The notes: generated by a model not told the origin, from the letters alone. DNA of 64,000 nt from Methylotenera sp. (GCA_013141075.1 JABFRQ010000004.1:3073-67072), one strand, 5' to 3'. Counted from the stretch's first letter, positions 4,699 to 23,428 are shown. Numbers and translations are program-made.

Positions 4699-5078
4699 TT
4701 ACTGCTCGCTAACGTTTGACATAAGGGGCGCCGTTAGGCGTCCCACTTAATGGATGGGTTAGGGCAAGCAACTTAACAGCCACCAAAGCCAAAACCACCA
4801 CCGAATTAAAAACTAAAATAGCGCGACCAAACAACAAGCCCCGCCAACCGAAAACTAAACTAAAACCACCAAACAAAAACATACCACAAAACCAAACCTA
4901 AACTAAGCCCGAAAAACTTAAACTACCACAAAACCAAAAGCCCAAAAGCACGAAAAAGCACCTGCCCTGCGACCCAATAAACAAGGGGCTCGTGGCGGCA
5001 TTGTTTTTAGCTAGCCCTAACGTTTGACATAAGGGGCGCGGTACGCGTCCCGCTTAATGGAGGGGTTAGCCATGATTT

Positions 5079-5477: not shown

Positions 5478-5497
5478 GATTATGGCTAACGTTTGAG

Positions 5498-5896: not shown

Positions 5897-6275
5897 AAAG
5901 CCCTAACGTTTGACATAAGGGGCGCCGTCAGGCGTCCCGCTTGATGGATGGGTTAGGGCAAGCAACTTAACAGCCACCAAAGCCAAAACCACCACCGAAT
6001 TAAAAGCTAAAATAGCGCGACCAAATAACAAGCCCCGCCAACCGAAAACTAAACTAAAACCACAAACAATAAACTACCACAAAACCAAACCTAAACTAAG
6101 CCCGAAAAACCTAAACCACCACCAAACCAAAAGCCCAAAAGCACGAAAAAGCACCTGCCCTGCGACCCAACAAACAAGCGGCTCGTGGCGGCATTGTTTT
6201 TAGCTAGCCCTAACGTTTGAATTAAGGGGCTGGCTTTAGCCAGTCCCGCTTGAATGATGGGTTATGCATAAAAAT

Positions 6276-6605
6276 TTAGTAGCCCATACTTGTAGATATA
6301 TTTGAATAGACTTTTTCACTAAAGGTAGATGCTTGTTTCAGAATCTCAGCTTCATTTTGATTGGCAATTTTTCCTGTTCTTGAAAACGACGCGCCTACCT
6401 CGTAAGCACTTTTCCAAAGCGCACTGCAATTAACGGTTCCGAGCAGACCACGCTTTTGTAAAATGTGTTGAGCAATGCCACTCATGAAGCGGTCTTGAGC
6501 ACCAGCGTAATATCCTCCAGCATTGCATATATTCAAATCTTCGTCCGCAGCAATAGCAGAAGTAGCTGACGCGAACAGAATTAGAGCTGTAATAAAAAGT
6601 CTCAT
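6276..6605 (-). CDS. Cassette: secreted hypothetical protein
   Basis: Cleavable signal peptide (ASATSAIA-A), two Cys, own AGAGGA RBS. Confidence 0.85.
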   Translation of the reverse strand: MRLFITALILFASATSAIAADEDLNICNAGGYYAGAQDRFMSGIAQHILQKRGLLGTVNCSALWKSAYEVGASFSRTGKIANQNEAEILKQASTFSEKVYSNISTSMGY

Positions 6606-6705
6606 AGTAATTATCCTCTAAACTGCATAACGTTTGAATTAAGGGGCTGGCTTTAGCCAGTCCCGCTTGAATGATGGGTTAGGGCAAGCTTTAGCTGGGC
6701 TGCCA

Positions 6706-6978
6706 TTATGGCTGTGTTTGTACAGCAATGATTGAAAACTCACTTTCACCGACCTCGATTGTTTTGCCCCATACATTTTTGATGTTTGGAATAGCCAAGA
6801 ACTCACCGCGGTATGCCTTGGATGTCAGCTCTTTGTGAAGTGCTGGAGTGAGCGCTGGCAAAGAACCTGCTGGGATGTTTGAACACCAAGAAGAAATGAA
6901 GCCTTTGAAATTGCTATGGCTCCCTTGGGTAACACGGCTGGCACCTTTGTACGAAACGATATATGTGTATAGCGGCAT
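6706..6978 (-). CDS. Cassette: hypothetical protein
   Basis: 90-aa ORF between attC 6625 and 6990. Confidence 0.8.
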   Translation of the reverse strand: MPLYTYIVSYKGASRVTQGSHSNFKGFISSWCSNIPAGSLPALTPALHKELTSKAYRGEFLAIPNIKNVWGKTIEVGESEFSIIAVQTQP

Positions 6979-7362
6979 TTAATGGAAAGCCCTAACGTTT
7001 GACATAAGGGGCGCCGTCAGGCGTCCCGCTTGATGGATGGGTTAGGGCAAGCAACTTAACAGCCACCAAAGCCAAAACCACCACCGAATTAAAAGCTAAA
7101 ATAGCGCGACCAAATAACAAGCCCCGCCAACCGAAAACTAAACTAAAACCACAAACAATAAACTACCACAAAACCAAACCTAAACTAAGCCCGAAAAACC
7201 TAAACCACCACCAAACCAAAAGCCCAAAAGCACGAAAAAGCACCTGCCCTGCGACCCAACAAACAAGCGGCTCGTGGCGGCATTGTTTTTAGCTAGCCCT
7301 AACGTTTGACATAAGGGGCGCCGCAAGGCGTCCCGCTTGATGGATGGGTTAGAAGCTGTTGA

Positions 7363-7869
7363 TTAGAGCGCATAAGTGACCTTATTCTCTGAAACAGTAA
7401 CTTTTTTAGTAGATTGTAATTGTTGAACAATAGTGGAAAGTTCAGAGTCTGGTAACCCGCTGGGGAAAAGTGAAACAATGGTGCTTTTCAATGTTTTTAG
7501 TGTTCTCGGTTTCGAGTTTCCGCGCTGCTTCAAGTTAGCAACTACAAGTGCAAGTTTATCGCTTTTTGGTTGTGCGATGACAGGTGCTTTGGATTGTGTA
7601 GCCACTTTAGCAGAGCCAACCCCATTGGGGCATTTGAATTGCCCCTTTTGGTTTAGAACGACCTGAAATTTTTCTTTGAGAGACATGCTGCCGAGTAATC
7701 GGTTGACTGTTTTGCAGCAGGCAACACAGTTTTCATCGCTGTTACTTCCACCATTAGCTGAGGCAAATAGATGTTCAACACTTGCTTCTGTTTTAGGTAA
7801 TGGTTGTTTGCAGAAAAAACACAAGCCACCTTGAACAAACATTAAGCGGTCGAGAGGTTTAGTTGGCAT
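7363..7869 (-). CDS. Cassette: HNH endonuclease with C-terminal helical (wHTH-like) domain
   Basis: CFFC...SVEHLFASANGGSNSDENCVACC..VN HNH signature, low-complexity linker, 60-aa C-terminal domain. Confidence 0.8.
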   Translation of the reverse strand: MPTKPLDRLMFVQGGLCFFCKQPLPKTEASVEHLFASANGGSNSDENCVACCKTVNRLLGSMSLKEKFQVVLNQKGQFKCPNGVGSAKVATQSKAPVIAQPKSDKLALVVANLKQRGNSKPRTLKTLKSTIVSLFPSGLPDSELSTIVQQLQSTKKVTVSENKVTYAL

Positions 7870-7875
7870 AAGCTT

Positions 7876-8166
7876 CTAACGTTTGACATAAGGGGCGCCG
7901 CAAGGCGTCCCGCTTAATGGATGGGTTAGGGCAAGCAACTTAACAGCCACCAAAGCCAAAACCACCACCGAATTAAAAACTAAAATAGCGCGACCAAACA
8001 ACAAGCCCCACCAACCGAAAACTAAACGAAAACCACAAACAATAAACCACCACAAAACCAAGCTTAAACTAAAACCACAGAACTTAAAACCACCCCAAAC
8101 CAAAAGCCAACAGCATGAAAAAGTACCTGCCCTGCGACCCAATAAACATGCGGCTCGTGGCGGCAT
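7876..8166 (-). CDS. Only fully open copy of the repeat-cassette ORF (96 aa, hydrophobic); may not be a real protein
   Basis: Same ATG as all other copies, but a 1-nt indel and TGG instead of TAG let it read through the attC to the GTTAG stop. Confidence 0.35.
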   Translation of the reverse strand: MPPRAACLLGRRAGTFSCCWLLVWGGFKFCGFSLSLVLWWFIVCGFRLVFGWWGLLFGRAILVFNSVVVLALVAVKLLALTHPLSGTPCGAPYVKR

Positions 8167-9705
8167 TGTTTTTAGCTAGCCCTAACGTTTGACATAAGGG
8201 GCGCGCTTTAGCGCGTCCCACTTAATGGATGGGTTAGGGCAAGCAACTTAACCGCCACCAAAGCCAAAACCACCACCGAATTAAAAACTAAAATAGCGCG
8301 ACCAAATAACAAGCCCCGCCAACCGAAAACTACACTAAAACCACCAACAATAAACTACCACAAAACCAAACCTAAACTAAACCCGAAAAACCTAAACCAC
8401 CACCAAACCAAAAGCCCAAAAGCACGAAAAAGCACCTGCCCTGCGACCCAATAAACATGCGGCTCGTGGCGGCATTGTTTTTAGCTAGCCCTAACGTTTG
8501 ACATAAGGGGCGCCGAAGGCGTCCCGCTTGATGGATGGGTTAGGGCAAGCAACTTAACCGCCACCAAAGCCAAAACCACCACCGAATTAAAAACTAAAAT
8601 AGCGTGACCAAACAACAAGCCCCACCAACCGAAAACTAAACGAAAACCACAAACAATAAACTACCACAAAACCAAACCTAAACTAAACCCGAAAAACCTA
8701 AACCACCACCAAACCAAAAGCCCAAAAGCACCTAAAACCCGATGCCCTGCGACCCAATAAACATGCGGCTTGCGGAGGCATGGTTTTACGAAGCCCTAAC
8801 GTTTGACATAAGGGGCGCCGTTAGGCGTCCCACTTAATGGATGGGTTAGGGCAAGCAACTTAACAGCCACCAAAGCCAAAACCACCACCGAATTAAAAAC
8901 TAAAATAGCGCGACCAAACAACAAGCCCCGCCAACCGAAAACTAAACTAAAACCACAAGCAATAAACTACCACAAAACCAAACCTAAACTAAACCCGAAA
9001 AACCTAAACTACCACCAAACCAAACGCTAATAGCACGAAAAAACAACTGCCCTGCGACCCAGCAAACAAGCGGCTCGTGGCGGCATTGTTTTAGCTAGCC
9101 CTAACGTTTGACATAAGGGGCGCCGCAAGGCGTCCCACTTAATGGATGGGTTAGGGCAAGCAACTTAACAGCCACCAAAACCTAAACCACCACCGAATTA
9201 AAAACTAAAATAGCGCGACCAAACAACAAGCCCCACCAACCGAAAACTAAACTAAAACCACAAACAAAAAACTACCACAAAACCAAACCTAAACTAAGCC
9301 CGAAAAACCTAAACCACCACCAAACCAAAAGCCCAAAAGCACCTAAAACCCAATGCCCTGCGACCCAGCAAACATGCGGCTCGTGGCGGCATTGTTTTTA
9401 GCTAGCCCTAACGTTTGACATAAGGGGCGCCGCAAGGCGTCCCACTTAATGGATGGGTTAGGGCAAGCAACTTAACAGCCACCAAAACCTAAACCACCAC
9501 CGAATTAAAAACCAAAATAGCGCGACCAAACAACAAGCCCCACCAACCAAAAACTAAACTAAAACCACCAAACAATAAACCACCACAAAACCAAACCTAA
9601 ACTAAACCCGAAAAACCTAAACCACCACCAAACCAAAAGCCTAAAAGCACCTAAAACCCGATGCCCTGCGACCCAGCAAACATGCGGCTCGTGGCGGCAT
9701 TGATT

Positions 9706-9999
9706 TTAGCTAGCCCTAACGTAATAATTAACCTGCACGCCGTGGCGTGTCAGGGTTGAATGATGGGTTAGGCGATTAGACTGCTTGCGAATGAGCCGCC
9801 ACACACACCAGACAAACAGGCCAAAGAAAATAACGGATAGAGCCAAACTTGGATAAGCCCAAGCAGCCGCACGTTCCGCAGACCATGATCCGTTTGCATT
9901 CATCCATGTGTAGAAGATGAACGAGCCAAACGCATAAAATGACGCAATGGGTGCTACAACGACCCCGACCCAATACAAAATTCGTGTGCGCTTAGTCAT
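9706..9999 (-). CDS. Cassette: small membrane protein
   Basis: Two TM segments; reads through atypical attC 9714; preceded by lone GTTAGGT at 10007-10013. Confidence 0.75.
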   Translation of the reverse strand: MTKRTRILYWVGVVVAPIASFYAFGSFIFYTWMNANGSWSAERAAAWAYPSLALSVIFFGLFVWCVWRLIRKQSNRLTHHSTLTRHGVQVNYYVRAS

Positions 10000-10025
10000 G
10001 AGATATACCTAACGATAGACCACTT

Positions 10026-10322
10026 TTACATCGCGTCATAATCTTTTATGCCTAGCAAAAAGGTAAGTATCATAAAATAGTTGATAAGCAATATACCTAA
10101 AACTACACCAATTACAACACCTGCAGGTATGGCTAGCGCGAATCCATGTTTTTTGGAAAACGTTGAGCCCCACACTACTCCCAATGCAACTACACCAAGA
10201 ACGCTGTAACCAAGTACAACAGGGCCGATTGAACCGTCGATTAAAAGCAAGTAGCTCAAGCTCAGCAAAACTGGTCCAAGAAAAATGCATACCGTCCAGA
10301 ACAATGCGATTCGTATAGTCAT
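10026..10322 (-). CDS. Cassette: small membrane protein (no attC of its own)
   Basis: 98 aa hydrophobic; followed by only 12 bp then a bare core site. Confidence 0.75.
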   Translation of the reverse strand: MTIRIALFWTVCIFLGPVLLSLSYLLLIDGSIGPVVLGYSVLGVVALGVVWGSTFSKKHGFALAIPAGVVIGVVLGILLINYFMILTFLLGIKDYDAM

Positions 10323-10389
10323 AACAATGGCCTAACGTTTGAATTAAGGGGCTGGCTTTAGCCAGTCCCGCTTGAATGATGGGTTAGGG

Positions 10390-10686
10390 TTACTTTGCAT
10401 AAAACCCATTAGGCCCAAAAAGTTCGTAAAGTGATTTAGCAAGTACTTGTGCTGTTTGCTGACTTAGACCAGAAAAAATATTTTCTCCAGTTATATATGG
10501 ATTAAGAGCGAATTCAGCGATATGCCGCTCGTGAGGGCTTAGATTTGAAAGTGATGTGTCAAATGCTAATCTTGCTCCGTCTTCCGTTACTTGCCATCGG
10601 TTAGAGCCAAGCATTGCTTCTAAAACTGGTTTGCGTAAGTGGAACGAGTCTTTCCAATCAATATCATGTTGGTATTTGTGAGACAT
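10390..10686 (-). CDS. Cassette: hypothetical protein
   Basis: Likely start MSHKY with AGGAGG RBS; the longer ORF call starts inside attC 10710. Confidence 0.75.
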   Translation of the reverse strand: MSHKYQHDIDWKDSFHLRKPVLEAMLGSNRWQVTEDGARLAFDTSLSNLSPHERHIAEFALNPYITGENIFSGLSQQTAQVLAKSLYELFGPNGFYAK

Positions 10687-11099
10687 AATTACCCTCCTTG
10701 GTTTGTAAACCCTAACGTTTGACATAAGGGGCGCGCTTTAGCGCGTCCCACTTAATGGATGGGTTAGGGCAAGCAACTTAACAGCCACCAAAACCTAAAC
10801 CACCACCGAATTAAAAACTAAAATAGCGTGACCAAACAATAAGCCCCACCAACCGAAAACTAAACGAAAACCACAAACAATAAACTACCACAAAACCAAG
10901 CTTAAACTAAAACCACAGAACTTAAAACAACCCCAAACCAAAAGCCCAAAAGCACCAAAACCCGATGCCCTGCGACCCAGCAAACATGCGGCTCGTGGCG
11001 GCATTGTTTTTAGCTAGCCCTAACGCGCAGCTAAGGGGCGCGCCGAAGGCGCGTCCCAGCGACCAAAGGGAGCGAACTTGAGCGTAGGGTTAGAGAACA

Positions 11100-11438
11100 T
11101 TAACATGGCCCAAACTCCAATGTTCGGAGAGACTCCTTAAAATACTGCGTAACACTATCAGGCGTCGCTGGGTAAAACGGTGCAGACGCGGCCTGAAACA
11201 GCACATACGTGATTATGAGCGCGAACGGGAAAATGACTCGTCGTTGCCATGAGCGAAGTATCGTTCCAGGGGCAAGAATGGCGATCAAAGTAACGGGCAC
11301 GACGATAGCCACAAAAAGCTCGTGATGCCACGAATAGCCGCCACACGAAAAGAGCCCGAAGAAAATGCCACCTATGGCAGCAACCAGCAATGCCGTGACC
11401 GTTGAGATGTTGCCGATGCGTCCAAATAACTTTCTCAT
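11100..11438 (-). CDS. Cassette: membrane protein with foreign-type 78-bp attC
   Basis: Three TM segments, visibly more GC-rich than neighbours, attC 11018-11095. Confidence 0.8.
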   Translation of the reverse strand: MRKLFGRIGNISTVTALLVAAIGGIFFGLFSCGGYSWHHELFVAIVVPVTLIAILAPGTILRSWQRRVIFPFALIITYVLFQAASAPFYPATPDSVTQYFKESLRTLEFGPC

Positions 11439-11441
11439 GGG

Positions 11442-11771
11442 CTCTAACGTTTGAATTAAGGGGCTGGCTTTAGCCAGTCCCGCTTGAATGATGGGTTAGG
11501 GAAAGCCGCCAAAAAGGCAACCAACACACCGCACCCAGCAAAACTAAAAAATAACGTAAAACCGCCCAACTTGCAAACCCCACAAAACCAAACGGAAACT
11601 AGGCACTAAAAACCTAAAAACTGCACCACCGAAAAGCCAACTAAAACCTAAAAACAAACCAAGCAAAACTAACCCAAAAATGCTAACTAAAACCGCCGAG
11701 CGAAAAACATTGCCCTGCGAGCCAACATCTGCGCGGCTTCCAGAGGTGCTGTGATAAAGATAAACCCTAAC
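11442..11771 (-). repeat. Divergent relative of the gene-poor repeat cassette
   Basis: Same length class and A/C skew on + strand; shares the TGCCCTGCGA block; lacks the conserved ATG; has the other attC subtype. Confidence 0.7.
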
Positions 11772-11778
11772 GTTTGAA

Positions 11779-12198
11779 TTAAGGGGCGCCTTTAGGCGTC
11801 CCGCTTGAATGATGGGTTAGCCCAGCCTGACTACATAATAATTTTTTTCTCTCAAGATACTTATCAGCAACTACGGTATCTTTTTTTATACCCAACTCAT
11901 CTCCCACACCGAATCGATAAAAGAGTTCTAATACATGAATGGCACTACAGCTATTTAACTCATCTGCCTTTTTCAAACAGTCTTGAGCTTCCAATTTCTC
12001 ACTCTCAGACATTAGTCTGGTTTTTGCAGTTGGAACACCATCTTTGATTCCAGTATTTTCAGACCAAAGGTTCCAGAAGCGAGAATACATAGCCTCCCCA
12101 TTTGATGTAACTGAACATTGAGTAGTATCACCAGACCTAGTGCATGAAGTAACTAGTGCTAAGCAAAATAAGATAGAGGTGAATCTGTTCAGGAACAT
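11779..12198 (-). CDS. Cassette: lipoprotein with a Sel1-like repeat
   Basis: Lipobox LVTSC; LELFYRFGVGDELGIKKDTVVADKY resembles Sel1 repeat; stop inside attC. Confidence 0.7.
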   Translation of the reverse strand: MFLNRFTSILFCLALVTSCTRSGDTTQCSVTSNGEAMYSRFWNLWSENTGIKDGVPTAKTRLMSESEKLEAQDCLKKADELNSCSAIHVLELFYRFGVGDELGIKKDTVVADKYLERKKLLCSQAGLTHHSSGTPKGAP

Positions 12199-12263
12199 GA
12201 TATGGCTAACGTTTGACATAAGGGGCGCGCTTTAGCGCGTCCCGCTTGATGGATGGGTTAGGC

Positions 12264-12671
12264 TTACTCATGTGGACGATATGCTGCTTGAGGATTTATG
12301 AAATATGCGCCCAGAAAACCAAAACCAGCAGACCCAAAAAATACGATTGGCATTAATGCCTGATGAGGCAAACCAACAAGTAAATGGTAGCCAAGGCCGA
12401 CTGCTCCCGTAGTGATTCCATAAGCTACCATCATAAAAACTAGATTGACATACCTTCCAATTTTTTCTTGGAAAGATGAGTTGTTGGTAATAAATAACCT
12501 AGATATTAAGGCTAGTATTGGGGGACCAATCAAGCCAAAGACCATTACTTGGATTAATGCTTGATGAGGGAAACTAGAAACTATTGGTTTATTCAGAATA
12601 GCAAATGGTTGATATGCACCAAAAATAACTCCCAAAATTATTCCAGTCCAATCGCTTCGATATAGTTTCAT
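12264..12671 (-). CDS. Cassette: four-TM membrane protein
   Basis: 135 aa with four hydrophobic segments. Confidence 0.85.
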   Translation of the reverse strand: MKLYRSDWTGIILGVIFGAYQPFAILNKPIVSSFPHQALIQVMVFGLIGPPILALISRLFITNNSSFQEKIGRYVNLVFMMVAYGITTGAVGLGYHLLVGLPHQALMPIVFFGSAGFGFLGAYFINPQAAYRPHE

Positions 12672-14234
12672 AAAAGCCTAACGTTTGACATAAGGGGCGC
12701 GCTTTAGCGCGTCCCGCTTAATGGATGGGTTAGGGCAAGCAACTTAACAGCCACCAAAGCCAAAACCACCACCGAATTAAAAACTAAAATAGCACGACCA
12801 AACAACAAGCCCCGCCAACCGAAAACTACACTAAAACCACAAACAATAAACTACCACAAAACCAAACCTAAACTAAGGCCGAAAAACCTAAACCACCACA
12901 AAACCAAAAGCCCAAAAGCACCTAAAACCCGATGCCCTGCGACCCAACAAACAAGCGGCTCGTGGCGGCATTGTTTTAGCTAGCCCTAACGTTTGACATA
13001 AGGGGCGCCGTTAGGCGTCCCACTTAATGGATGGGTTAGGGCAAGCAACTTAACAGCCACCAAAGCCAAAACCACCACCGAATTAAAAACTAAAATAGCG
13101 CGACCAAACAACAAGCCCCGCCAACCGAAAACTAAACTAAAACCACAAGCAATAAACTACCACAAAACCAAACCTAAACTAAACCCGAAAAACCTAAACT
13201 ACCACCAAACCAAACGCTAATAGCACGAAAAAACAACTGCCCTGCGACCCAGCAAACAAGCGGCTCGTGGCGGCATTGTTTTAGCTAGCCCTAACGTTTG
13301 ACATAAGGGGCGCCGAAGGCGTCCCGCTTGATGGATGGGTTAGGGCAAGCAACTTAACCGCCACCAAAGCCAAAACCACCACCGAATTAAAAACTAAAAT
13401 AGCGTGACCAAACAACAAGCCCCACCAACCGAAAACTAAACGAAAACCACAAACAATAAACTACCACAAAACCAAACCTAAACTAAACCCGAAAAACCTA
13501 AACCACCACCAAACCAAAAGCCCAAAAGCACCTAAAACCCGATGCCCTGCGACCCAATAAACATGCGGCTTGCGGAGGCATGGTTTTACGAAGCCCTAAC
13601 GTTTGACATAAGGGGCGCCGCAAGGCGTCCCACTTAATGGATGGGTTAGGGCAAGCAACTTAACAGCCACCAAAGCCAAAACCACCACCGAATTAAAAAC
13701 TAAAATAGCGCGACCAAACAACAAGCCCCGCCAACCGAAAACTAAACTAAAACCACAAACAAAAAACTACCACAAAACCAAGCTTAAACTAAACCCACAG
13801 AACTTAAAACAACCACCAAACCAAAAGCCTAAAAGCACCTAAAACCTGATGCCCTGCGACCCAGCAAACATGCGGCTCGTGGAGGCATTGTTTTTAGATA
13901 GCCCTAACGTTTGACATAAGGGGCGCCGAAGGCGTCCCACTTAATGGATGGGTTAGGGCAAGCAACTTAACAGCCACCAAAGCCAAAACCACCACCGAAT
14001 TAAAAACTAAAATAGCGCGACCAAATAACAAGCCCCACCAACCGAAAACTAAACTAAAACTACAAACAAAAAACTACCACAAAACCAAACCTAAACTAAA
14101 CCCGAAAAACGTAAACCACCACCAAACCAAAAGCCCAAAAGCACGAAAAAGCACCTGCCCTGCGACCCAGCAAACAAGCGGCTCGTGGCGGCATTGTTTT
14201 TAGTTAGCCCTAACGTTTTAATTAAGGGGCGCCG

Positions 14235-14489
14235 TTAGGCGTCCCGCTTGAATGATGGGTTAGGCACATTTTTTTCATGCTTAGCACATTGCTGACACAG
14301 CCCAATATCATTGGTACTTAAAGGCTCGAAATACCTTCTCAGATTTTGACCATTAAACTTTGGGTCGTCATTTACTGGCATTTCAGGTTTGTAGCCTTTT
14401 CTTCCGCAAGCTATACATTGGTTTATCCACTTGAGAAGATTTGGATGCATCCTTAGATAACCATCACCGTCAGAAAATAGATTACTCAT
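14235..14489 (-). CDS. Cassette: small putative Zn-binding protein
   Basis: CIAC...CQQC pairs; stop inside attC 14208. Confidence 0.75.
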   Translation of the reverse strand: MSNLFSDGDGYLRMHPNLLKWINQCIACGRKGYKPEMPVNDDPKFNGQNLRRYFEPLSTNDIGLCQQCAKHEKNVPNPSFKRDA

Positions 14490-14571
14490 TGTGTGCCTAA
14501 CGTAAAAGTGAGGGGCTGCGCGCTTTTGCGCAGTCCCTCTCGACTGCCGGGTTGGGCATCAGGCGCTGCAT

Positions 14572-15132
14572 TTACGCAACCTGCAATTGGAAGACATGCC
14601 GCCGAATACCTGCGCGCCCCACTTCTCGAAAACCGGCAGCCTCGAATGTAGGAACGAAGCCCATGAACCGATAACTCGGAGACTCTGGATCGACTGGATA
14701 AGCTTCCACAATTGAGGCGCCTCTGGACTTGGCAAAGTCGATGGCTGCGGCAATGATTCGTTGTGTAATGCCTTGGCCGCGCAACCTGCGAGCAACGAAG
14801 AAGCAAGCGATTGACCAAACGCCTTCGTCAGAGCTGCCATCGTCAACGAGCCGACGGTAAGTTGATCGTGGTGCCACGGAGCACCACGCGACGGGCTCTT
14901 CATCAAGATAGCCAAGAAGCCCCACTGTCGTTCCAGCGGCGATACGTTTGGCAATTGCGGCTTTGCGGCTCGCGCCGTCAGTGTGCTTTGCTTCCTCTGG
15001 CATTGCACGCCAGACCATGCACCAACAAGCCTTTGGGCCGCCTCGACATTCGAAAAGCCTCTCGAAGTCAGGCCATGTGTCGGCAGTGACTTCGCGAAAC
15101 ACGATGCGATCAATTTCTGCTGCTTCAGTCAT
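14572..15132 (-). CDS. Cassette: GNAT-family N-acetyltransferase
   Basis: VGLLGY....VAWCSVAPR, WSIACFFV....RGQGI....I.AA, VEAYP motifs; GC-rich; atypical attC 14495. Confidence 0.9.
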   Translation of the reverse strand: MTEAAEIDRIVFREVTADTWPDFERLFECRGGPKACWCMVWRAMPEEAKHTDGASRKAAIAKRIAAGTTVGLLGYLDEEPVAWCSVAPRSTYRRLVDDGSSDEGVWSIACFFVARRLRGQGITQRIIAAAIDFAKSRGASIVEAYPVDPESPSYRFMGFVPTFEAAGFREVGRAGIRRHVFQLQVA

Positions 15133-15472
15133 GTGATGCCCAACGTTTGACATAAGGGGCGCCGTCAGGCGTCCCGCTTAATGGATGGGTTAGGGCAAGC
15201 AACTTAACAGCCACTAAAGCCAAAACCACCACCGAATTAAAAACTAAAATAGCGCGACCCAACAACAAGCCCCACCAACCGAAAACTAAACTAAAACCAC
15301 AAACAATAAACTACCACAAAACCAAACCTAAACTAAGCCCAACAAAACTTAAAACACCACCAAACCAAAAGCCAAACAGCACCTAAAACCCGATGCCCTG
15401 CGACCCAACAAACATGCGGCTCGTGGCGGCATTGTTTTTAGCTAGCCCTAACGTTTGAATTAAGGGGCGCCG

Positions 15473-15889
15473 TTAGGCGTCCCGCTTGAATGATGGGTTA
15501 GGCGCGGACTTAGCTAAACGACCAATAACCCCAAGATGAGTAAAACTAAACCCCGCTGAATATTTAAGCCCATAGCCCAGCGCACGGTCAAAGCCAATGT
15601 GAGCGCACCAAATGACACCCGCACATGAAAGGACAGGAGCAAGAAGAAGAGAACCCGCAACAAGACAAGCAATAGCACCAATATAAGAGTGTGCTGCATT
15701 ATAAGATAAAGCACCAACACGCGACCCTGCGAGATAACCTAGAAACGAAAGGTCGGGGGTGAGAAAAAATAACGCGAACGTACCCCAGCTAAAACCTAAC
15801 TTGGGGTAAAAAAGCGACGCGGCTATTAGCACACACAAACCCTCAAGCCTTAAAACCCACCGCACTGCACCTGTTGTTTCACCTGACAT
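15473..15889 (-). CDS. Cassette: DUF4260-family membrane protein
   Basis: LRLEG...FLTPDLSFLGYL.G...GA..YN.AH...AHIGFDRALGYGLKY..GF..THLG. Confidence 0.85.
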   Translation of the reverse strand: MSGETTGAVRWVLRLEGLCVLIAASLFYPKLGFSWGTFALFFLTPDLSFLGYLAGSRVGALSYNAAHSYIGAIACLVAGSLLLAPVLSCAGVIWCAHIGFDRALGYGLKYSAGFSFTHLGVIGRLAKSAPNPSFKRDA

Positions 15890-16283
15890 GTAATTCCTTT
15901 GTTTTGTAGCGCCTAACGTTTGACATAAGGGGCGCCGCAAGGCGTCCCACTTAATGGATGGGTTAGGGCAAGCAACTTAACAGCCACCAAAACCAAAACC
16001 ACCACCGAATTAAAAACTAAAATAGCGCGACCAAAAAACAAGCCCCGCCAACCGAAAACTACACTAAAACCACAAACAAAAAACCACCACAAAACCAAGC
16101 CTAAACTAAAACCACAGAACTTAAAACAACCCCAAACCAAAAGCCCAAAAGCACCTAAAACCCGATGCCCTGCGACCCAACAAACAAGCGGCTCGTGGCG
16201 GCATTGTTTTTAACTAGCCCTAACGTTTGAATTAAGGGGCGCCGTTAGGCGTCCCGCTTGAATGATAGGTTATGCGTTAACAT

Positions 16284-16571
16284 TTAATATTTACAACCAA
16301 ATTCTGCCCATCCCCAGCCACCTTCACCATAGCCACCTTGTATATAGTTAATTCCTTCGGTGCAACTCAAGGGCATTAGCTTGGTTCTTATTAACATAAG
16401 TTCGAAAGCTCTTTCTTTTGATGAATCTAAAGCTTCAACTTCATGCCATTTGAAGTAGCTAACATATGGCGCTCGGCTGCCATCTTTTACAGAAGCACAG
16501 AATTCGTTTTTGCTTTGGATTGAACAGCATCCAGTTAATAGCAAAAGTACAACTAAATTATAAATACGCAT
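16284..16571 (-). CDS. Cassette: small Cys-rich lipoprotein
   Basis: Lipobox LTGC; ATG inside the GTTATGC core site. Confidence 0.8.
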   Translation of the reverse strand: MRIYNLVVLLLLTGCCSIQSKNEFCASVKDGSRAPYVSYFKWHEVEALDSSKERAFELMLIRTKLMPLSCTEGINYIQGGYGEGGWGWAEFGCKY

Positions 16572-16649
16572 AACGTGGAGCTAAGGGGCGCGCCGAAGGC
16601 GCGTCCCAGCGACCGGAGGGAGCGAACTTGAGCGTATGGTTAGAGCGCA

Positions 16650-17057
16650 TTACGCGAACCACCCCACCGCATTGTCGTCCCACTCATGGCCGTGAATAGC
16701 CCAAGCACTATTCGTTGCGGGAGGCGGAAACCCAGTACGGCAATAGCCACGCTTTGATTGGAAATCGAAGACCGCATGCGGATGCCCGTTGATCAGAAGG
16801 GCTACCTTCTGAGAATCGACAGACCAGCCGATCTTTACGACTGAAGGTTTATCGCGGTCCGTGACATTAACTACATTGTAGATTTGTAGCGCGTCCTGAA
16901 TAGGATTGCCTTCGCATGTGACATCGAGTGCATAGAAGTATCCGGTGTCTTGATCATCTTCGAACACGGCCACAAAGGGGCCTTCCAGTGCGGCACCCTC
17001 GACTGTGGTTGGACGCCCAACTATGAACTCTTGCTCGGCGGTGATATGGATAGGCAT
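16650..17057 (-). CDS. Cassette: DUF2251-family protein with foreign-type 78-bp attC
   Basis: VFEDD..TGYFYA...IQDALQIYNV...LLING.PHAVFDF..KRGYCRTGFPP. Confidence 0.85.
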   Translation of the reverse strand: MPIHITAEQEFIVGRPTTVEGAALEGPFVAVFEDDQDTGYFYALDVTCEGNPIQDALQIYNVVNVTDRDKPSVVKIGWSVDSQKVALLINGHPHAVFDFQSKRGYCRTGFPPPATNSAWAIHGHEWDDNAVGWFA

Positions 17058-17125
17058 AGAAATGGGCCTTGCGCTCTAACGTTTGAATTAAGGGGCGCCG
17101 TTAGGCGTCCCGCTTGAATGATGGG

Positions 17126-17434
17126 TTAGGCATTATTAAACACCTTAAGAACCCGACCAAGGCCAATATCTTTACCCTCCCAAACTTTAAAAACAGTACC
17201 TACAGGAAAGTGAGGGGTAGCTGCCTCTGGGACAAGGAATTGTACGTCAAAATTTTGAGCCTCACTAGGACTGAAAACATGCTCGGAAGGTATGCAAAAA
17301 CGCACTGAAAAACTTTCTTCACCTACGGTAAAAACTCCTCGATACTCGCCTTGGAGAATTGGTGTTTTTCTACCTCCCAACTCTTCAGGGGTCAGAGTAA
17401 TTTCAACTGATATTTGTGGTGAGAATTGCTTCAC
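17126..17434 (-). CDS. Cassette: stand-alone EF-Tu domain III-like protein
   Basis: LTPEELGGRKTPILQGEYR and VWEGKDIGLGRVLKV align by eye to EF-Tu LSKDEGGRHTPFFKGYR and IREGGRTVGAGVVAKV; GTG start inferred. Confidence 0.65.
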   Translation of the reverse strand: MKQFSPQISVEITLTPEELGGRKTPILQGEYRGVFTVGEESFSVRFCIPSEHVFSPSEAQNFDVQFLVPEAATPHFPVGTVFKVWEGKDIGLGRVLKVFNNA

Positions 17435-17805
17435 AAGCAAAATGCCTAACGTTTGACATAAGGGGCGCGCTTTAGCGCGTCCCACTTAATGGATGGGTTA
17501 GGGCAAGCAACTTAACAGCCACCAAAGCCAAAACCACCACCGAATTAAAAACCAAAATAGCGCGACCAAACAACAAGCCCCACCAACCAAAAACTAAACT
17601 AAAACCACAAACAATAAACTACCACAAAACCAAACCTAAACTAAGCCCAACAAAACTTAAACCACCACCAAACCAAAAGCCAAAAAGCACCTAAAACCCG
17701 ATGCCCTGCGACCCAGCAAACAAGCGGCTCGTGGCGGCATTGTTTTTAGCTAGGCCTAACGTTTGACATAAGGGGCGCCGCAAGGCGTCCCGCTTGATGG
17801 ATGGG

Positions 17806-18210
17806 TTAGGTTGCGTGTGCATGGCAAACTGCCTTAAGGTCAGAAATAAATGGTGGCAGAGACGTTTGGTCGGTAACGAACTCAAACTCAAGACGCTGGT
17901 TATGTTCTGCTGCCACGGTTAGCACGCCACTGACTACTATTTGTCCTCTGCCATTCCCACGGAGAGAGAAGTAAGGCTCCTCGAATTGCTGCCCTAGCTT
18001 GGCTTCGCCAACCAACTTGGCAGACAACACCTCAAGCGCTGAGATAAACTCGCCAAGCAACGGATAATCAAAGAAAAATGAGGTGCTGGCGGAGAAAGGG
18101 AACGAAACCACCCCCAACACGCAGGAACCCCCTGATCCATCCCCGAAAAGTTCGATATTTTTCATGGCGAGTTGGTGCTGGTCAGAGTGAGTGATGAGTG
18201 AGGCGTCCAT
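17806..18210 (-). CDS. First cassette: WapI-like immunity protein (tentative)
   Basis: C-terminal LEFEFVTDQTSLP motif; sits directly after attI. Confidence 0.55.
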   Translation of the reverse strand: MDASLITHSDQHQLAMKNIELFGDGSGGSCVLGVVSFPFSASTSFFFDYPLLGEFISALEVLSAKLVGEAKLGQQFEEPYFSLRGNGRGQIVVSGVLTVAAEHNQRLEFEFVTDQTSLPPFISDLKAVCHAHAT

Positions 18211-18214
18211 AGCG

Positions 18215-18240
18215 ACCTAACGTAAAGTAGACATCCTAAT
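18215..18240 (-). other. attI recombination site (predicted)
   Basis: Last GTTAGGT core site of the array with no attC palindrome upstream, on the intI side. Confidence 0.8.
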
Positions 18241-18261
18241 TGACGCGTTATATTGCATCAA
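18233..18261 (-). promoter_or_regulatory. Proximal cassette promoter Pc (sigma70-type)
   Basis: TTGATG-N17-TAGGAT overlapping attI. Confidence 0.65.
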
Positions 18262-18330
18262 GTGGGACATTTTCTTGTTGATAAAAGTATAAGTGTACAG
18301 TAAAAACATGCTGTTAATTATTTTTAGTGC

Positions 18331-18359
18331 ATCCTACAAATAAAATAGATTTGCGTCAA
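18331..18359 (-). promoter_or_regulatory. Distal cassette promoter Pc (sigma70-type)
   Basis: TTGACG-N17-TAGGAT. Confidence 0.7.
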
Positions 18360-18385
18360 ATCTGATATCGTTAATTAAATACTTA

Positions 18386-18607
18386 CTAAGCTTTTTGCCA
18401 AGTAATATCAATTTTTTTATGGTTGGCGGCGCAATCTCGCAAATATAAATTGATTAAGCTTTGGTAAGGCACGCCAGCTTCATCGGACATTTGTTTGAAA
18501 TAGCCAATCACATCTTCACTTAAGCGCATGGTCACCGATTTTTTTAGCTTGCTTGCGTAAGGGTTTTTGCGAGCTTTCATGGCTGATAAATCATATTCTG
18601 TTTTCAT
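18386..18607 (-). CDS. brnA: BrnA/CopG-like antitoxin
   Basis: EYDLS....RKNPYA..LKK.VTMRL...VI.YFK.......PYQSLINLYL RHH-type; downstream of brnT. Confidence 0.85.
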   Translation of the reverse strand: MKTEYDLSAMKARKNPYASKLKKSVTMRLSEDVIGYFKQMSDEAGVPYQSLINLYLRDCAANHKKIDITWQKA

Positions 18608-18645
18608 TTTATTGCACCTTAATTATATTCATTTTTGAATTATAT

Positions 18646-18924
18646 TCATTTTTGATAATATCCACATTCGGCCTTGGTAGCTTTTCTAGCGGAAATGATA
18701 CGGATAACGTGACCTTGGTTACGTTCGCAATGGCAAACAATCAGTAGGCGAGCTTTATCGCTAAACCCAAGCATTAAAAACCTATTTTCTGCTTCGGCAT
18801 CATTATTATCAAAAAACTGAACCGCAAATTCATCATAAAAAATAGATTGGGCTTCTTCAAAAGAAACGCGATGTTTCTTGATGTTTGAACTTGCTTTGTT
18901 TGCATCCCATTCAAACTTAATCAT
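18646..18924 (-). CDS. brnT: BrnT-family ribonuclease toxin
   Basis: FEWD..K...N..KH.VSFEEA...F...IRIISARKAT. Confidence 0.92.
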   Translation of the reverse strand: MIKFEWDANKASSNIKKHRVSFEEAQSIFYDEFAVQFFDNNDAEAENRFLMLGFSDKARLLIVCHCERNQGHVIRIISARKATKAECGYYQK

Positions 18925-18930
18925 ACTTAC

Positions 18931-18958
18931 ATTGTATGTACGTTTAAGGGGGTGTCAA
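18931..18958 (-). promoter_or_regulatory. brnTA promoter, predicts leaderless mRNA
   Basis: TTGACA-N16-TACAAT with the brnT ATG 6 nt downstream. Confidence 0.7.
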
Positions 18959-18977
18959 GTATTTGGAAGAAATTTTT

Positions 18978-19382
18978 CTAAAACTCAAACGGATTCAACA
19001 CTTTTACAGAAAATCGCTCAAAATCGCGCACGTTACGGGTGACTACGGTGAGTTGGTGGGTGATTGCGCAAGCAGCAATCATGGCATCTTCAATCACGGT
19101 GTTAGATTGCTCGTGCATGAGCCTTGCCCATATTCTGAATGCGTCCGCCGTCATGGGTAATACGCTGTAACTATTGGCTACTTGGTTAAGCCACGCCTCA
19201 ATTTCACTCGCTTTATCAACATCTTGCTCGCGCGTGATTTCAATACCCGCCTGAATTTCGCCAATGGTAACGGGGCATAAATGCAAATCGCGGTCATCTA
19301 CACTCTGAAGCCACGCCAACACCGCGTCGTGCGGTTTAATTTTTCTGAGTTCTGAAACTATATTGGTGTCGATTAAATACAT
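18978..19382 (-). CDS. vapC: VapC/PIN-domain toxin
   Basis: YLIDTNIVSE, TIGEI, DAMIAA.A......VVTRN.RDF. Confidence 0.92.
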   Translation of the reverse strand: MYLIDTNIVSELRKIKPHDAVLAWLQSVDDRDLHLCPVTIGEIQAGIEITREQDVDKASEIEAWLNQVANSYSVLPMTADAFRIWARLMHEQSNTVIEDAMIAACAITHQLTVVTRNVRDFERFSVKVLNPFEF

Positions 19383-19385
19383 GCG

Positions 19386-19643
19386 TTACGCGCCAGTAGG
19401 TGCGCGGCGTTTAGCCTTGCCGCGTGGTGGAATGTTTAAGTCGCCGCGTGCAACACCAGACAATAACAATGTTTTTAACGTAGGCGATGCAGCTTGGGTT
19501 AGGCGTTTCCATTCAGCAATCGGCACTAAAACCGCTGTTTCTACGCCGCGACGCGTCACAAGTTGTGAGCCATCGGTAATGCAGGCATCTAAAAATTCGC
19601 TAAAGCGCGCTTTAGCATCTTGTACTGGCCAAGTATTCATCAT
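19386..19643 (-). CDS. Phd/YefM-family antitoxin
   Basis: W.VQDAKARFSE.L......Q.VTRRG...AVLV; GAGG RBS before MMNT. Confidence 0.9.
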   Translation of the reverse strand: MMNTWPVQDAKARFSEFLDACITDGSQLVTRRGVETAVLVPIAEWKRLTQAASPTLKTLLLSGVARGDLNIPPRGKAKRRAPTGA

Positions 19644-19660
19644 ATAAAGCCTCATTTAAG

Positions 19661-19678
19661 ACTAGTTAGATGACTAGT
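19661..19678. promoter_or_regulatory. Putative antitoxin operator (two ACTAGT palindromes)
   Basis: ACTAGT-tagatg-ACTAGT just upstream of the phd-like gene. Confidence 0.5.
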
Positions 19679-19799
19679 TTAATAACGTTGTTTAAGTTTG
19701 TCAAATGATTGTTTGTGTTTTTATTAAAACACCCTGTTGGTAAATTTAAATATAGTGTAAAATCAACTAATTATAAATTATTAGTTAATCCTAAATGAT

Positions 19800-20807
19800 A
19801 TGTTAAATACGTCAAATACATTAAAAAATGAACCACCAAAACTACTAGACCAAGTGCGCGGAAAAATCCGTTTAAAGCATTACAGCATCCGCACAGAGCA
19901 AGCGTATGTAGATTGGATTAAACGCTTTATTTTGCATTTTGATAAGCAGCACCCTAAAGATTTAGGCGCGGCGCAGGTGGAGCAATTTTTAACGCATTTG
20001 GCGGTGGTGGGTAAGGTTTCTGCTAGCACGCAAAATCAGGCAAAAAGCGCGTTATTGTTTTTGTACAAAGAAATTCTAGGCAGTGAGCTGCCTTGGTTAG
20101 ATGATGTTGAGCAGGCCAAAACCAGCAAGCGCCTGCCCGTAGTGCTCACACAGCAAGAAGTGCAGGCGATTTTAAGCCAGCTTAGCGGCACGCATCATTT
20201 AGTGGTAAGCATGCTTTACGGCACGGGTATGCGTATTCTAGAGGGCTTGCGGTTGCGGGTGAAAGACATTGATTTTGCGCGTAAAGAAATTTTAATTCGT
20301 GATGGCAAAGGCTATAAAGACCGCGTGACCATGCTACCTTTAAGCTTGGTAATACCTTTGCAGGCGCATTTAGCGCAGGTAAAAATGCTGCACGAAAAAG
20401 ATTTAGCACAAGGTTATGGCGCAGTGTATATGCCGTTTGCCTTGGGCAAAAAATACCCATATGCAGCGCGCGATTGGGCTTGGCAATATGTGTTTCCATC
20501 GGGCAAGCTGTCGGTTGACCCGCGCAGTTTAGATGAAAACGGTGCTGGTGAAACGCGCCGCCATCACGTGCAAGACCAAGCCATTCAGCGCGCGGTGCGC
20601 CAAGCGGTGGTAGATGCCAACCTTACCAAACCCGCCACGCCGCATACATTTCGCCATAGTTTTGCCACACATTTACTTGAAAGCGGCTACGATATTCGCA
20701 CCGTGCAAGAGTTGCTTGGGCATTCTGACGTAGCAACCACCATGATTTACACGCATGTGCTCAACAAAGGCGGGCGCGGCGTGAGTAGTCCGTTGGATGG
20801 TTTATAG
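19800..20807 (+). CDS. intI: Integron integrase (tyrosine recombinase), intact
   Basis: [25 protein letters not shown], IntI-specific insert ([24 protein letters not shown]), [19 protein letters not shown]. Confidence 0.98.
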
Positions 20808-20838
20808 GGCTTGTTGCAAATCACCGTAATCAGGTTTA

Positions 20839-20856
20839 TTATAACGTTTGTTATAA
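20839..20856. promoter_or_regulatory. Inverted repeat, probable AbrB-antitoxin operator
   Basis: TTATAAC-N4-GTTATAA upstream of the TA operon. Confidence 0.45.
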
Positions 20857-20875
20857 CATAAACGTTGGAGCTGAG

Positions 20876-21100
20876 ATGCACACCCTAAAATTGACTAAAA
20901 TTGGTAACTCCCTTGGCTTAATCTTACCCAAAGAAGTGCTGGCGCGATTGAAGTTAGAAAAAGGCGACACCGTATTTTTAACCGATGCGCCAGGCGCTGC
21001 AACCATTACGCCGCATGACCCTAGTTTTATCGATCAGCTTGAGATAGGCCGTGAATTTATGCGTGAGTATCGCGATACTTTTAACGAACTGGCAAAATAA
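20876..21100 (+). CDS. AbrB/MazE/SpoVT-family antitoxin
   Basis: LKLTKIGNSLGLILPKEVL.RL.L.KGD.VFL. Confidence 0.9.
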   Translation: MHTLKLTKIGNSLGLILPKEVLARLKLEKGDTVFLTDAPGAATITPHDPSFIDQLEIGREFMREYRDTFNELAK

Positions 21101-21489
21101 TGATGCAGCATTGGCGGTGGGTAGATAAACAGCTTTTAATTTTGTTGCATGATGAAAGCTTGGTAACGCATGGCGGAGCATCTGGGGTTCGTGATGAAGG
21201 TTTGCTAGATTCTGCACTAAGTCGTGCGCCAAATTTAGCCCTGAACGGCAACCCTGATTTTGCAGATTTAGCGGCGGCTTATGGATTAGGATTAGCCAAA
21301 AACCACGCTTTTGTAGACGGTAATAAACGCGTTGCTTTTCTTTCCGTAGGTTTATTTTTAGGTATAAATGGTTACAAGCTCAATGCTAATCAGGTGGATG
21401 CAACTTTAACCATGCTCGCCGTAGCCGCGGGTGATACCGATGAAGCGACTTTTGCTAGCTGGATACGTGGTAACACAGTAAAACGCTAG
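21100..21489 (+). CDS. doc: Doc (death-on-curing) Fic-fold toxin
   Basis: NHAFVDGNKRVA motif; TAATG overlap with antitoxin. Confidence 0.92.
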   Translation: MMQHWRWVDKQLLILLHDESLVTHGGASGVRDEGLLDSALSRAPNLALNGNPDFADLAAAYGLGLAKNHAFVDGNKRVAFLSVGLFLGINGYKLNANQVDATLTMLAVAAGDTDEATFASWIRGNTVKR

Positions 21490-21577
21490 TTTAAGCGCAT
21501 ATTTCCTTAGCCAGTTTGGCTTAGCTAGTCTAAAATTACACCTTTATTGCAGTTAATTATTTTTACGGATTTTTACT

Positions 21578-23428
21578 ATGCCAGTTTATCGTTCACGTAC
21601 CACCACCCACGGCCGCAACATGGCGGGCGCACGCGCTTTGTGGCGCGCCACTGGCATGAAAGACGGCGATTTTGATAAACCAATTATCGCAGTGTGCAAC
21701 TCATTTACGCAATTTGTGCCAGGGCATGTTCACCTTAAAGATTTAGGCCAGCTCGTGGCGCGTGAAATTGAGCGCGCAGGCGGCGTGGCAAAAGAGTTCA
21801 ATACCATCGCGGTGGATGACGGCATTGCCATGGGCCACGGCGGCATGTTGTATAGCTTGCCAAGCCGCGATTTAATTGCAGACTCCGTAGAATATATGGT
21901 CAACGCGCACTGTGCCGATGCGCTGGTGTGCATCTCCAATTGTGACAAAATTACCCCAGGTATGCTCATGGCGGCGCTACGCTTGAATATCCCCGTGGTG
22001 TTCGTTTCTGGCGGCCCGATGGAAGCTGGCAAAGTAAACTGGCAAGGTGAAGTGCTGAAGCTTGATTTGGTTGATGCCATGGTAGCTGCAGCAGATAGCA
22101 AAGTAAGCGATGCAAAAGCTGAAGCCATTGAGCGCTCCGCTTGCCCAACTTGCGGCAGTTGCTCTGGCATGTTCACGGCAAATTCCATGAACTGTTTAAC
22201 TGAAGCATTAGGCTTAAGCTTGCCTGGCAACGGCTCTGCACTTGCCACGCACGGGGCGCGTAAAGAATTATTTTTAAAAGCAGGGCGCTTAATTGTAGAA
22301 ATCACCAAACGCCATTATGAGCAAGATGATTACAGTGTGTTGCCGCGCTCAATCGCCAATATGAAAGCCTTTGAAAACGCCATGGCGCTAGATGTTGCCA
22401 TGGGCGGCAGCACTAATACCGTGCTGCATTTGTTAGCCGCCGCGCACGAGGCAGAGCTTGATTTCACCATGAGCGATATTGATAAAATTTCACGCAAAGT
22501 GCCGTGCGTGTGCAAAGTTGCACCCGCCACACAAAAATATCACATGGAAGACGTACACCACGCAGGTGGCGTAATGGGCATTTTGGGCGAGTTAGATCGC
22601 GCAGGTGTGATTCACCGCGACACGCCCACTGTGCATAGCCCAACAATGGGCGACGCGCTAGATAAATGGGATATTAAAGTCACCAAAGATGAAGACGTAA
22701 AAAAATTCTACCGCGCCGCGCCAGCAGGCATTGTAACGACCATTGCGTTTAGCCAAAGCATGCTTTACCCAACGCTGGACGACGACCGTGCGGAAGGCTG
22801 CATTCGCGATTTAGCGCATGCGTATTCATTAGATGGCGGCTTAGCCGTGCTGTACGGCAATATCGCGCTAGACGGTTGCATTGTAAAAACCGCAGGCGTG
22901 GACGACAGTATTTTAAAATTCACAGGTCGCGCACGTATTTTTGAAAGCCAAGATGCCTCAGTTGAAGCAATTTTAGCCGACCAAATTGTAGCGGGCGATG
23001 TAGTCGTCATCCGTTACGAAGGCCCCCGCGGCGGCCCAGGCATGCAAGAAATGCTATACCCAACTAGCTACTTAAAATCAAAAGATTTAGGCAAAGTTTG
23101 CGCCTTGCTCACAGATGGCCGTTTTTCAGGCGGCACTTCAGGTTTAAGCATCGGCCACGCAAGCCCAGAAGCGGCTGAGGGCGGCGCAATTGGCTTGGTA
23201 GAAGAAGGCGACACCATTGAAATTGACATTCCAAACCGCACCATTCATTTAGCAATTTCAGACGAAGAAATGTCGCATCGCCGCGCAAAAATGGAAGCTA
23301 AAGGTAAAGATGCTTGGAAGCCAATAAATCGTGTGCGTGCCGTTTCACCCGCTTTACGTGCCTATGCAGCAATGAGCACCAGCGCGGCGCGTGGGGCAGT
23401 GCGCGATGTTAGCCAAATTGAAAAGTAA
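21578..23428 (+). CDS. ilvD: Dihydroxy-acid dehydratase
   Basis: [40 protein letters not shown]. Confidence 0.98.

Follow-up and report, generated by a model that had tools for sequence, protein, structure and literature searches.

The integron of Methylotenera sp. described here lies in a 64,000-nucleotide (nt) stretch of a draft genome (GCA_013141075.1, JABFRQ010000004.1:3073-67072; hereafter the window) and departs from the canonical platform, in which the recombination site attI is immediately beside the integrase gene intI. Two toxin-antitoxin (TA) operons, brnTA (18386-18924) and phd-vapC (18978-19655), occupy 1578 nt between attI and intI, and a third, abrB-doc, stands between intI and the chromosomal gene ilvD, with the abrB ATG 68 nt past the intI stop (Table 1). 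The order intI-(abrB-doc)-ilvD is in one direction, while the two wedged operons face left, towards the cassette array. This layout had been proposed in an initial annotation made from the sequence alone, and the coordinates and families that it gave for all seven open reading frames (ORFs), as well as the orientation of both left-facing operons, are borne out.

Both the integrase and the toxins look intact, and the sequence gives no sign of a dead toxin. The alignment of IntI with VchIntIA (PDB 2a3v) is full-length and takes in the integron-specific inserted segment and the RHSFATHLL and GH..Y motifs; an exact-protein look-up found no other assembly with an identical IntI. The Doc motif HAFVDGNKR aligns with HIFNDANKR of P1 Doc (PDB 3k33; full-length alignment; Fic-type motif HxFx[DN][AG]NKR), and BrnT aligns full-length with a solved BrnT-family toxin (PDB 7vd7). 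VapC aligns end to end with FitB (PDB 2h1c) and keeps D5, E42, the aspartate of IEDAMIAA and that of RDF, the last of which we take to be the acidic residue of the T-x-N-x-x-[DE]-F motif. Homologues of the phd product begin at the MMNTWPV codons.

Table 1. Features of the integron platform and its surroundings (positions in the window; a dot marks a feature with no strand).
Feature	Position	Strand	Basis
attC nearest attI, closes first cassette	17755..17810	-	covariance model R1, 82.1 bits
First-cassette ORF, WapI-like immunity protein	17806..18210	-	Pfam PF24716, E=1.9e-11
Complete attI / cassette-promoter region (copy 1)	18216..18361	-	homologous to region abutting intI in G023, G008, G078, L031 and others
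Second candidate cassette-promoter copy, TTGATG-17-TAGGAT	18233..18261	-	promoter scan
Candidate cassette promoter TTGACG-17-TAGGAT, -35 inside intI stub	18331..18359	-	promoter scan, 9/12
17-nt relic of intI 5' end, ATAGATTTGCGTCAAAT, ATG decayed to ATA	18345..18361	+	aligns with intI start region of relatives and window 19800-19817
Junction filler, 24 nt, between intI stub and brnA stop	18362..18385	.	homologous to neither flank
brnA antitoxin (RHH/CopG)	18386..18607	-	Pfam BrnA_antitoxin PF14384, 37.1 bits, E=4.3e-9
brnT toxin (ribonuclease family)	18646..18924	-	Pfam BrnT_toxin PF04365, 99.9 bits
Predicted brnT promoter TTGACA-16-TACAAT	18931..18958	-	promoter scan, 11/12, consensus match only
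vapC (PIN) toxin, FitB-like	18978..19382	-	Pfam PIN PF01850, E=4e-16
phd/yefM-type antitoxin	19386..19655	-	Pfam PhdYeFM PF02604, E=9.9e-15; TIGR01552
Predicted phd promoter TTGACA-17-TAAACT (19676-19704) and paired ACTAGT boxes (19661-19666, 19673-19678)	19661..19704	-	promoter scan, 10/12; conserved with phd-vapC in G010, G023, G056; consensus match only
Second proximal platform (copy 2): promoter region, 5' untranslated region, first intI codons	19735..19817	+	alignment to copy 1
intI integron integrase, intact	19800..20807	+	TIGR02249, 476.7 bits (cut-off 265)
abrB-doc operator-like repeat TTATTATAAC-N4-GTTATAAC	20836..20857	+	precedes every abrB-doc copy examined, integron or not
abrB/MazE-fold antitoxin (Doc partner, 'doc_partner')	20876..21100	+	TIGR02609, 61.8 bits; Pfam MazE_antitoxin
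doc toxin (Fic/Doc kinase family)	21100..21489	+	TIGR01550; motif HAFVDGNKR
ilvD, chromosomal flank	21578..23428	+	92-98% identity across genus

That attI is not next to intI, as the initial annotation had claimed, is upheld by comparison with relatives. The crossover core CCTAAC/GT lies at 18216-18224 (first-cassette junction CCTAAC/GTAAAG, or G/TTAGGT, of the GTTRRRY type) and is followed, inside attI, by the half-palindromes TTGACG (18240-18245) and CATCAA (18256-18261) and by ATCCTA motifs at 18233-18238 and 18331-18336. The segment 18216-18347 is ~76% identical to the one that immediately precedes the intI start codon in relatives (G023, G008, G078, L031, L034 and L035), where CCTAAC/GTAAAGTAG.CATCCTA-TTGACG-N10-CGTCAA...TTTTTAGTGC.TCCTAAA leads directly into intI. 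Judged by this homology, the site at 18216-18224 is the true attI, displaced from its integrase gene. Among 29 platforms with this attI core (22 genome-derived and seven metagenome-derived), the distance from the core to the intI ATG is 1578 nt in the window, 651 nt in a Gallionellaceae metagenome-assembled genome (MAG; locus L039), 12 nt in G016 and 93-272 nt in the others.

Two observations on attI in relatives may be added. The palindrome TTGACG-N10-CGTCAA (window 18240-18261) is kept elsewhere (L021 8150-8180; L023, L036 and L131 upstream of intI), and both of its arms change together (ATGATG...CATCAT) in G004 and L036, which points to a hairpin or to recognition by a dimeric protein. At the opposite extreme of spacing, the attI core in G016 (L022 8575-8610) is separated from the intI ATG by only ~12-30 nt, and an array of at least 13 cassettes is nevertheless present; the remainder of the attI region was apparently lost through a deletion between two TAGGATGC/ATCCTA repeats.

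The proximal platform is present in two diverged copies, one at each end of the region between attI and intI. Copy 1, the complete attI region, runs at its far end into a 17-nt relic of the start of intI, and copy 2 leads into the intact gene; the latter has neither the attI core nor the attI palindrome and carries instead a palindrome of its own, AACTAAT-N8-ATTAGTT (19765-19786). The two align locally with a score of 46, as against 28.6±4.9 for dinucleotide shuffles (of which four in 500 reach 46), and a second platform copy was found in none of 126 other integron loci, where the top score is 36.5. Copy 2 is 74% identical to its counterpart in G078, and copy 1 is 71% and 68% identical to those in L031 and G008, respectively, whereas the copies share only 57% identity with one another. 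Since each is thus closer to a different relative than to the other copy, the comparison favours a join of two platform lineages at this locus. A recent tandem duplication in situ was considered as the source of both copies and is disfavoured by their mutual identity of 57%, lower than the 74% and 71% shared with relatives.

A candidate cassette promoter, TTGA(C/T)G-16/17-TAGGA(T/A), directed at attI and with its -35 hexamer in intI codons 3-5, is found in the window (both copies) and in G023, G016, G008 and L032, although its ATCCTA part could equally be an accessory IntI-binding repeat. Homology in copy 1 stops 2 nt past the candidate -35 hexamer, and the survival of 5' stubs of intI may be due to the conserved -35 hexamer inside its opening codons.

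What fills the interval can be traced in part by a DNA search of the wedge region against 93 genomes of the genus (one per species), which resolves three independent units, namely the attI region (18225-18347), brnTA (18390-18959) and phd-vapC (18977-19718). The brnTA unit has 74% nucleotide identity with copies in G048, G067 and G023, and BrnA is 86-87% identical to BrnA of the cassette copies in G067 and L067 (a Nitrosomonadales MAG). In G048 and G067, brnTA is a true attC-bounded cassette, which begins at GTTAGGGC and has the brnA stop within the R'' box of its attC, and the same TTGACA-N-TACAAT promoter is found 4 nt inside the GTTAGGGC boundary in G048, G067 and L067. In the window, the homologous stretch extends from this -35 hexamer to the final codons of brnA, and no attC remains. 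Identity over phd-vapC and its promoter is 84% with G010 and 79% with G023 and G056; the unit ends at the promoter on one side and at the stop codon on the other, and stands in non-integron contexts in G023 and G056. By these homologies, brnTA is derived from a promoter-carrying integron cassette, and phd-vapC is a free-standing module also found outside integrons.

Both operons are trimmed to what lies between promoter and stop, and are tightly packed, with 19 nt from the vapC stop to the brnT -35 hexamer and 24 nt from the brnA stop to the next feature. Each of the three TA operons has its own promoter-like or operator-like signals, as had been claimed (brnT and phd, 11/12 and 10/12 matches; abrB, TTGCAA-17-TATTAT plus the operator-like repeat, the promoter being a consensus match only). 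Every promoter-like element between intI and attI is directed at the array, and the stretch from brnA to attI contains no terminator-like site. In the case of brnT, the -10 hexamer TACAAT ends 6 nt ahead of the ATG and there is no Shine-Dalgarno sequence (window 18922-18936), so the mRNA is probably leaderless; this spacing is kept in the cassette copies of G048, G067 and L067. Two stretches that could be mistaken for recombination sites were rejected as such. The first, GTACGTTTAAGGGGG (~18935-18955), a candidate attC remnant, is the brnT promoter (-35 TTGACA, minus strand), conserved in the cassette copies, and the second, ATAAC/GTT at 19683-19692, a candidate second attI core, forms the phd promoter spacer and is shared by the phd-vapC units of G010, G023 and G056.

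On the other side of attI lies the array of attC sites, imperfect hairpins of the form RYYYAAC...GTTRRRY by which the cassettes are delimited. With a covariance model trained on the local sites, 47 attC were found on the minus strand of the window (704-17810), 55-58 nt long and highly similar to one another. The array reaches the start of its contig (C5) and resumes on another (C8) with 48 more sites, ending beside lgt; its extents are C5:1-21290 and C8:1-20977, its chromosomal flanks lgt and ilvD, and its total at least 103 attC sites (108 in a second count). With this many homogeneous sites, the locus is a sedentary chromosomal integron as currently defined (≥11 attC, homogeneous attC; PMC13108822). 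It is also the largest in the sample, about three times the size of any other (108 attC as against 34 at most in 15 other genomes of the genus). Roughly one cassette in two belongs to a non-coding family of ~306 nt, A/C-rich on the plus strand. The model, which does detect attC sites in other bacterial orders, gives nothing significant between 17811 and 21500, its best match there being the attI core (11.6 bits, E=1.6). The claim that brnTA, phd-vapC and abrB-doc, all three of them, are without attC stands accordingly, and IntI cannot excise brnTA or phd-vapC. Neither is there a TA cassette in the array, again as claimed, in so far as Pfam scans of the cassette ORFs of both contigs and both strands detect no TA family (small or novel TA could escape such scans).

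Two features of the array deserve mention in their own right. The same cassette ORFs (e.g. MITLPSSITLDIPS...) occur at C5:2997-3758 and C8:382-1161, near the array ends, as either duplicated cassettes or overlapping contig ends. One long 'cassette' (C8:10093-11430) encodes a 72-residue helix-turn-helix protein, a 185-residue Clp_N-domain protein and a glyoxalase; it may represent either a two-gene module that escaped recognition or two cassettes between which an attC was missed.

The third operon, abrB-doc, has a history of its own. A Doc homologue is present in 40 of the 93 genomes, and abrB-doc is found directly 3' of intI in 21 of them (12 at the ilvD locus, at least six at other loci). It also stands directly 5' of ilvD in at least eight genomes with no integrase, which makes it a resident chromosomal TA operon, not a part of the integron. 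Conversely, an intact intI abuts ilvD with no abrB-doc in 11 genomes, including the closest IntI relatives, G095 (90%) and G078 (86%), and G019, which has 34 attC sites, and in G064 and G055 abrB-doc outlasts a decayed intI. All four combinations with intI and ilvD are therefore seen, and the notion that abrB-doc is a conserved and necessary part of the integron was dropped, given that abrB-doc adjoins ilvD without intI and intI adjoins ilvD without abrB-doc. The operon is an old chromosomal neighbour, in many cases carried along with the integron; intI does not need it, nor does it depend on intI.

How singular is the wedge? No relative has brnTA or phd-vapC in its platform, and a metagenome scan returned no population variants of the locus, only relatives of at most 71% identity. 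The closest parallel in position is the Gallionellaceae locus L039, whose IntI is 75% identical to that of the window and which shares its attC type. There, a complete attI/promoter region (2733-2865) is followed by a ParE-like toxin gene and a small upstream ORF (2874-3328) on the array-facing strand, and the intI ATG lies 71 nt beyond. The position and orientation of the wedge are thus the same and the TA families different. These are the only two of the 29 platforms with a displaced attI, and in both the displacer is a TA operon at the very start of intI.

A parallel of another kind is contig C29 of G010, in which a BrnTA-like cassette, another ORF and phd-vapC are followed by an abutting 3'-truncated intI stub (~50-60 codons), a complete attI and more cassettes in the same direction. 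The stub is 86% identical to the window IntI, and the full-length IntI of G010 is 71% identical. The same locus (L112, 1393-1475) has a perfect 23-bp inverted repeat with a 37-nt loop, not attC-like, between ORF160 and the phd promoter. More widely, 3'-truncated intI stubs of 50-98 codons with an attI and an array, that is, decapitated platforms, are seen in G010:C29, G048:C10, G055:C50, G064:C20 and G087:C44 and C148 (L112, L124-L128).

Downstream of intI, TA operons are scattered. Among the genes just 3' of intI in ~79 loci, the TA genes found besides abrB-doc of the Methylophilaceae are MazF (L058), MazE-PIN (L083) and brnTA (L067 and L060), so that a TA operon 3' of intI is not a general feature. 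The two brnTA copies, convergent with intI, lie at L067 3302-3810 and, in a Burkholderiales MAG, at L060 2762-2998; the former is preceded by a degenerate attC and followed by no more than a CCCTAAG remnant, which is another way in which a brnTA cassette became fixed beside an integrase gene.

Taken together, these data make it probable, although far from certain, that the locus is an addiction-stabilised recombination scar in a sedentary chromosomal integron, with two immobile TA operons wedged between attI and intI. Two platform lineages would have been joined, either because the integrase gene was replaced or because a short proximal array decayed until only its TA genes were left. The wedge would then have persisted since loss of a TA pair, including loss by recombination between the flanking direct repeats, would arrest or kill the cell, and the obvious deletion route, recombination of copy 1 with copy 2, would remove the antitoxin genes. 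Deletions that uncouple intI from attI and the array would be penalised as a side effect, not by design, and TA-only insertions at the position between attI and intI would represent a survivorship effect. Three co-directional promoters (those predicted for phd and brnT, and the candidate cassette promoter) would now point into the array, where read-through into the first cassettes is possible. In this scenario, the order of events, the activity of the toxins, transcription and the stabilising effect are what we infer from the observed anatomy, homologies and distribution among relatives.

Several points weigh against this scenario. The proposed origin depends on segments of ~80 nt, in which the difference between 57% and 74% or 71% identity amounts to few sites. 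No relic of a second attI or of an attC is left at the wedge, so the decay of a proximal array is not separable from an insertion plus duplication, and among the copies of phd-vapC in relatives none was found with an attC of its own. The only other 5' intI stub to adjoin TA genes is that of G010, while four others (G048, G055, G064 and G087) adjoin ordinary genes. Finally, L039 has no platform duplication, and one mechanism may therefore not fit all cases.

Among the alternatives, the one raised by the initial annotation is a purpose-built wall, in which the three TA operons were selected to protect intI and attI from deletion or to gate cells during cassette shuffling. Three intact TA operons do flank intI in the genome with the largest array sampled, an array that has no TA cassette of its own, and L039 has a TA operon in the same position. 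Comparison of intI neighbourhoods nevertheless speaks against a conserved protective design, which we consider unlikely: the wedge occurs in no relative, no TA operon accompanies the intact intI beside ilvD in 11 genomes, and abrB-doc stands at ilvD without an integron and outlasts the decayed intI of G064 and G055. Absence of the TA operons from close relatives, an outcome that the initial annotation had listed as refuting, is thus observed, in relatives whose integrons are intact. Moreover, without attC the three operons cannot join in the 'cassette loss killing' of Vibrio (PMC13108822). What survives of the protection idea is that addiction plausibly explains the persistence of the wedge and that deletions separating intI from attI would be penalised as a side effect; what does not is a conserved wall. 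Slightly less likely again is a regulatory rewiring, in which the inserted operon would have taken over, or would modulate, expression of intI, of the cassettes or of both. Phd-VapC would bind near the intI promoter, with stress-driven loss of the antitoxin replacing LexA as the trigger of integrase induction. The promoters of phd and intI are arranged back to back within 144 nt, the ACTAGT boxes of phd (19661-19678) resemble half-sites of the AACTAAT-N8-ATTAGTT palindrome upstream of intI, and the native promoter region of L039 has remained beside attI, leaving intI 71 nt from the antitoxin start. A weaker palindrome, ACTA-N-TAGT, is however present in relatives without phd-vapC and hence predates the insertion. 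Cross-talk between Phd-VapC and the intI promoter is possible all the same, and is compatible with an addiction-stabilised scar.

Two more prosaic possibilities can be largely set aside. If brnTA and phd-vapC were ordinary first cassettes with unrecognised attC sites, the real attI would be next to intI; the TA genes are indeed in cassette orientation, brnTA is a cassette elsewhere, and the stretches at 18935-18955 and 19683-19692 look attC- or attI-like by eye. Both stretches are nonetheless parts of the brnT and phd promoters, conserved with these modules in other genomes, and the covariance model is silent at both positions in the window; copy 2 is without attI core and palindrome, and the canonical attI is at 18216-18347. 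This largely refuted reading is very improbable, and so, to the same degree, is a chimeric join, which might be suspected in a draft of 11 contigs that is ~90% complete and has its array broken over two of them. Against such an artefact, the wedge is unique sequence, comparable structures occur in the independent assemblies of G010 and L039, and the flanking repeats, 57% identical over ~80 nt, are too diverged to mislead an assembler. A bolder proposition, prompted by the two cases of displaced attI (the window and L039) with a TA operon at the start of intI, is that insertion at this point happens repeatedly, perhaps in a site-directed manner, in environmental chromosomal integrons. Such an insertion would uncouple the integrase from its native promoter and attI region and set it back to back with a TA promoter, and antitoxin turnover under stress, not LexA, would then control both integrase expression and read-through into the array; we regard this as speculative, and about as unlikely as the wall.

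TA systems in integrons are understood as excisable cassettes of the array, which punish high excision rates and large deletions. In the superintegron of Vibrio cholerae, attC-bounded TA cassettes are scattered through the array and mediate 'cassette loss killing' (Richard et al. 2024, PMC13108822), and the number of TA cassettes in sedentary integrons rises with array size (PMC13108822). Like these, the operons in the window are type II TA systems with promoters of their own, tied to a very large chromosomal integron, and addiction is the likely cause of their persistence and of the stability of neighbouring DNA. Unlike them, they are devoid of attC and are located in the platform, where two of them separate attI from intI, next to an array of at least 103 cassettes that has no recognisable TA cassette; IntI-dependent loss and killing cannot therefore operate.

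A second point of comparison is offered by the ilvD-linked integrons of Xanthomonas, in which intI decay and replacement are seen, truncated intI is common, and ilvD and intI identities are discordant between strains, suggesting recombinational exchange of integrases (bioRxiv 10.1101/2025.06.18.660453). The window integron is likewise beside ilvD (19800-23428; also L021, L025 and L035), but Methylotenera belongs to the Betaproteobacteria, an unrelated class, and neither a TA wedge nor a duplicated platform figures in that study. Copy 1 also resembles decapitated integrons and arrays of the CALIN type (clusters of attC sites lacking integron-integrases), which keep an attI and a 5' intI stub. 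It differs from them in that its stub is far shorter (17 nt) and that an intact intI lies 1.45 kb away, so that an integrase in cis-proximity probably still serves the array.

The locus outlines a different relationship between TA systems and integrons, in which TA operons without recombination sites are fixed in the platform itself and attI has come to lie 1.6 kb from intI. Should the regulatory reading prove correct, cassette shuffling would also be coupled to stress in a LexA-independent way. Either way, this integron is natural material for studying (i) whether attI and intI need to be adjacent, (ii) where the cassette promoter is located in environmental integrons and (iii) whether recombination exchanges integrases between platforms.

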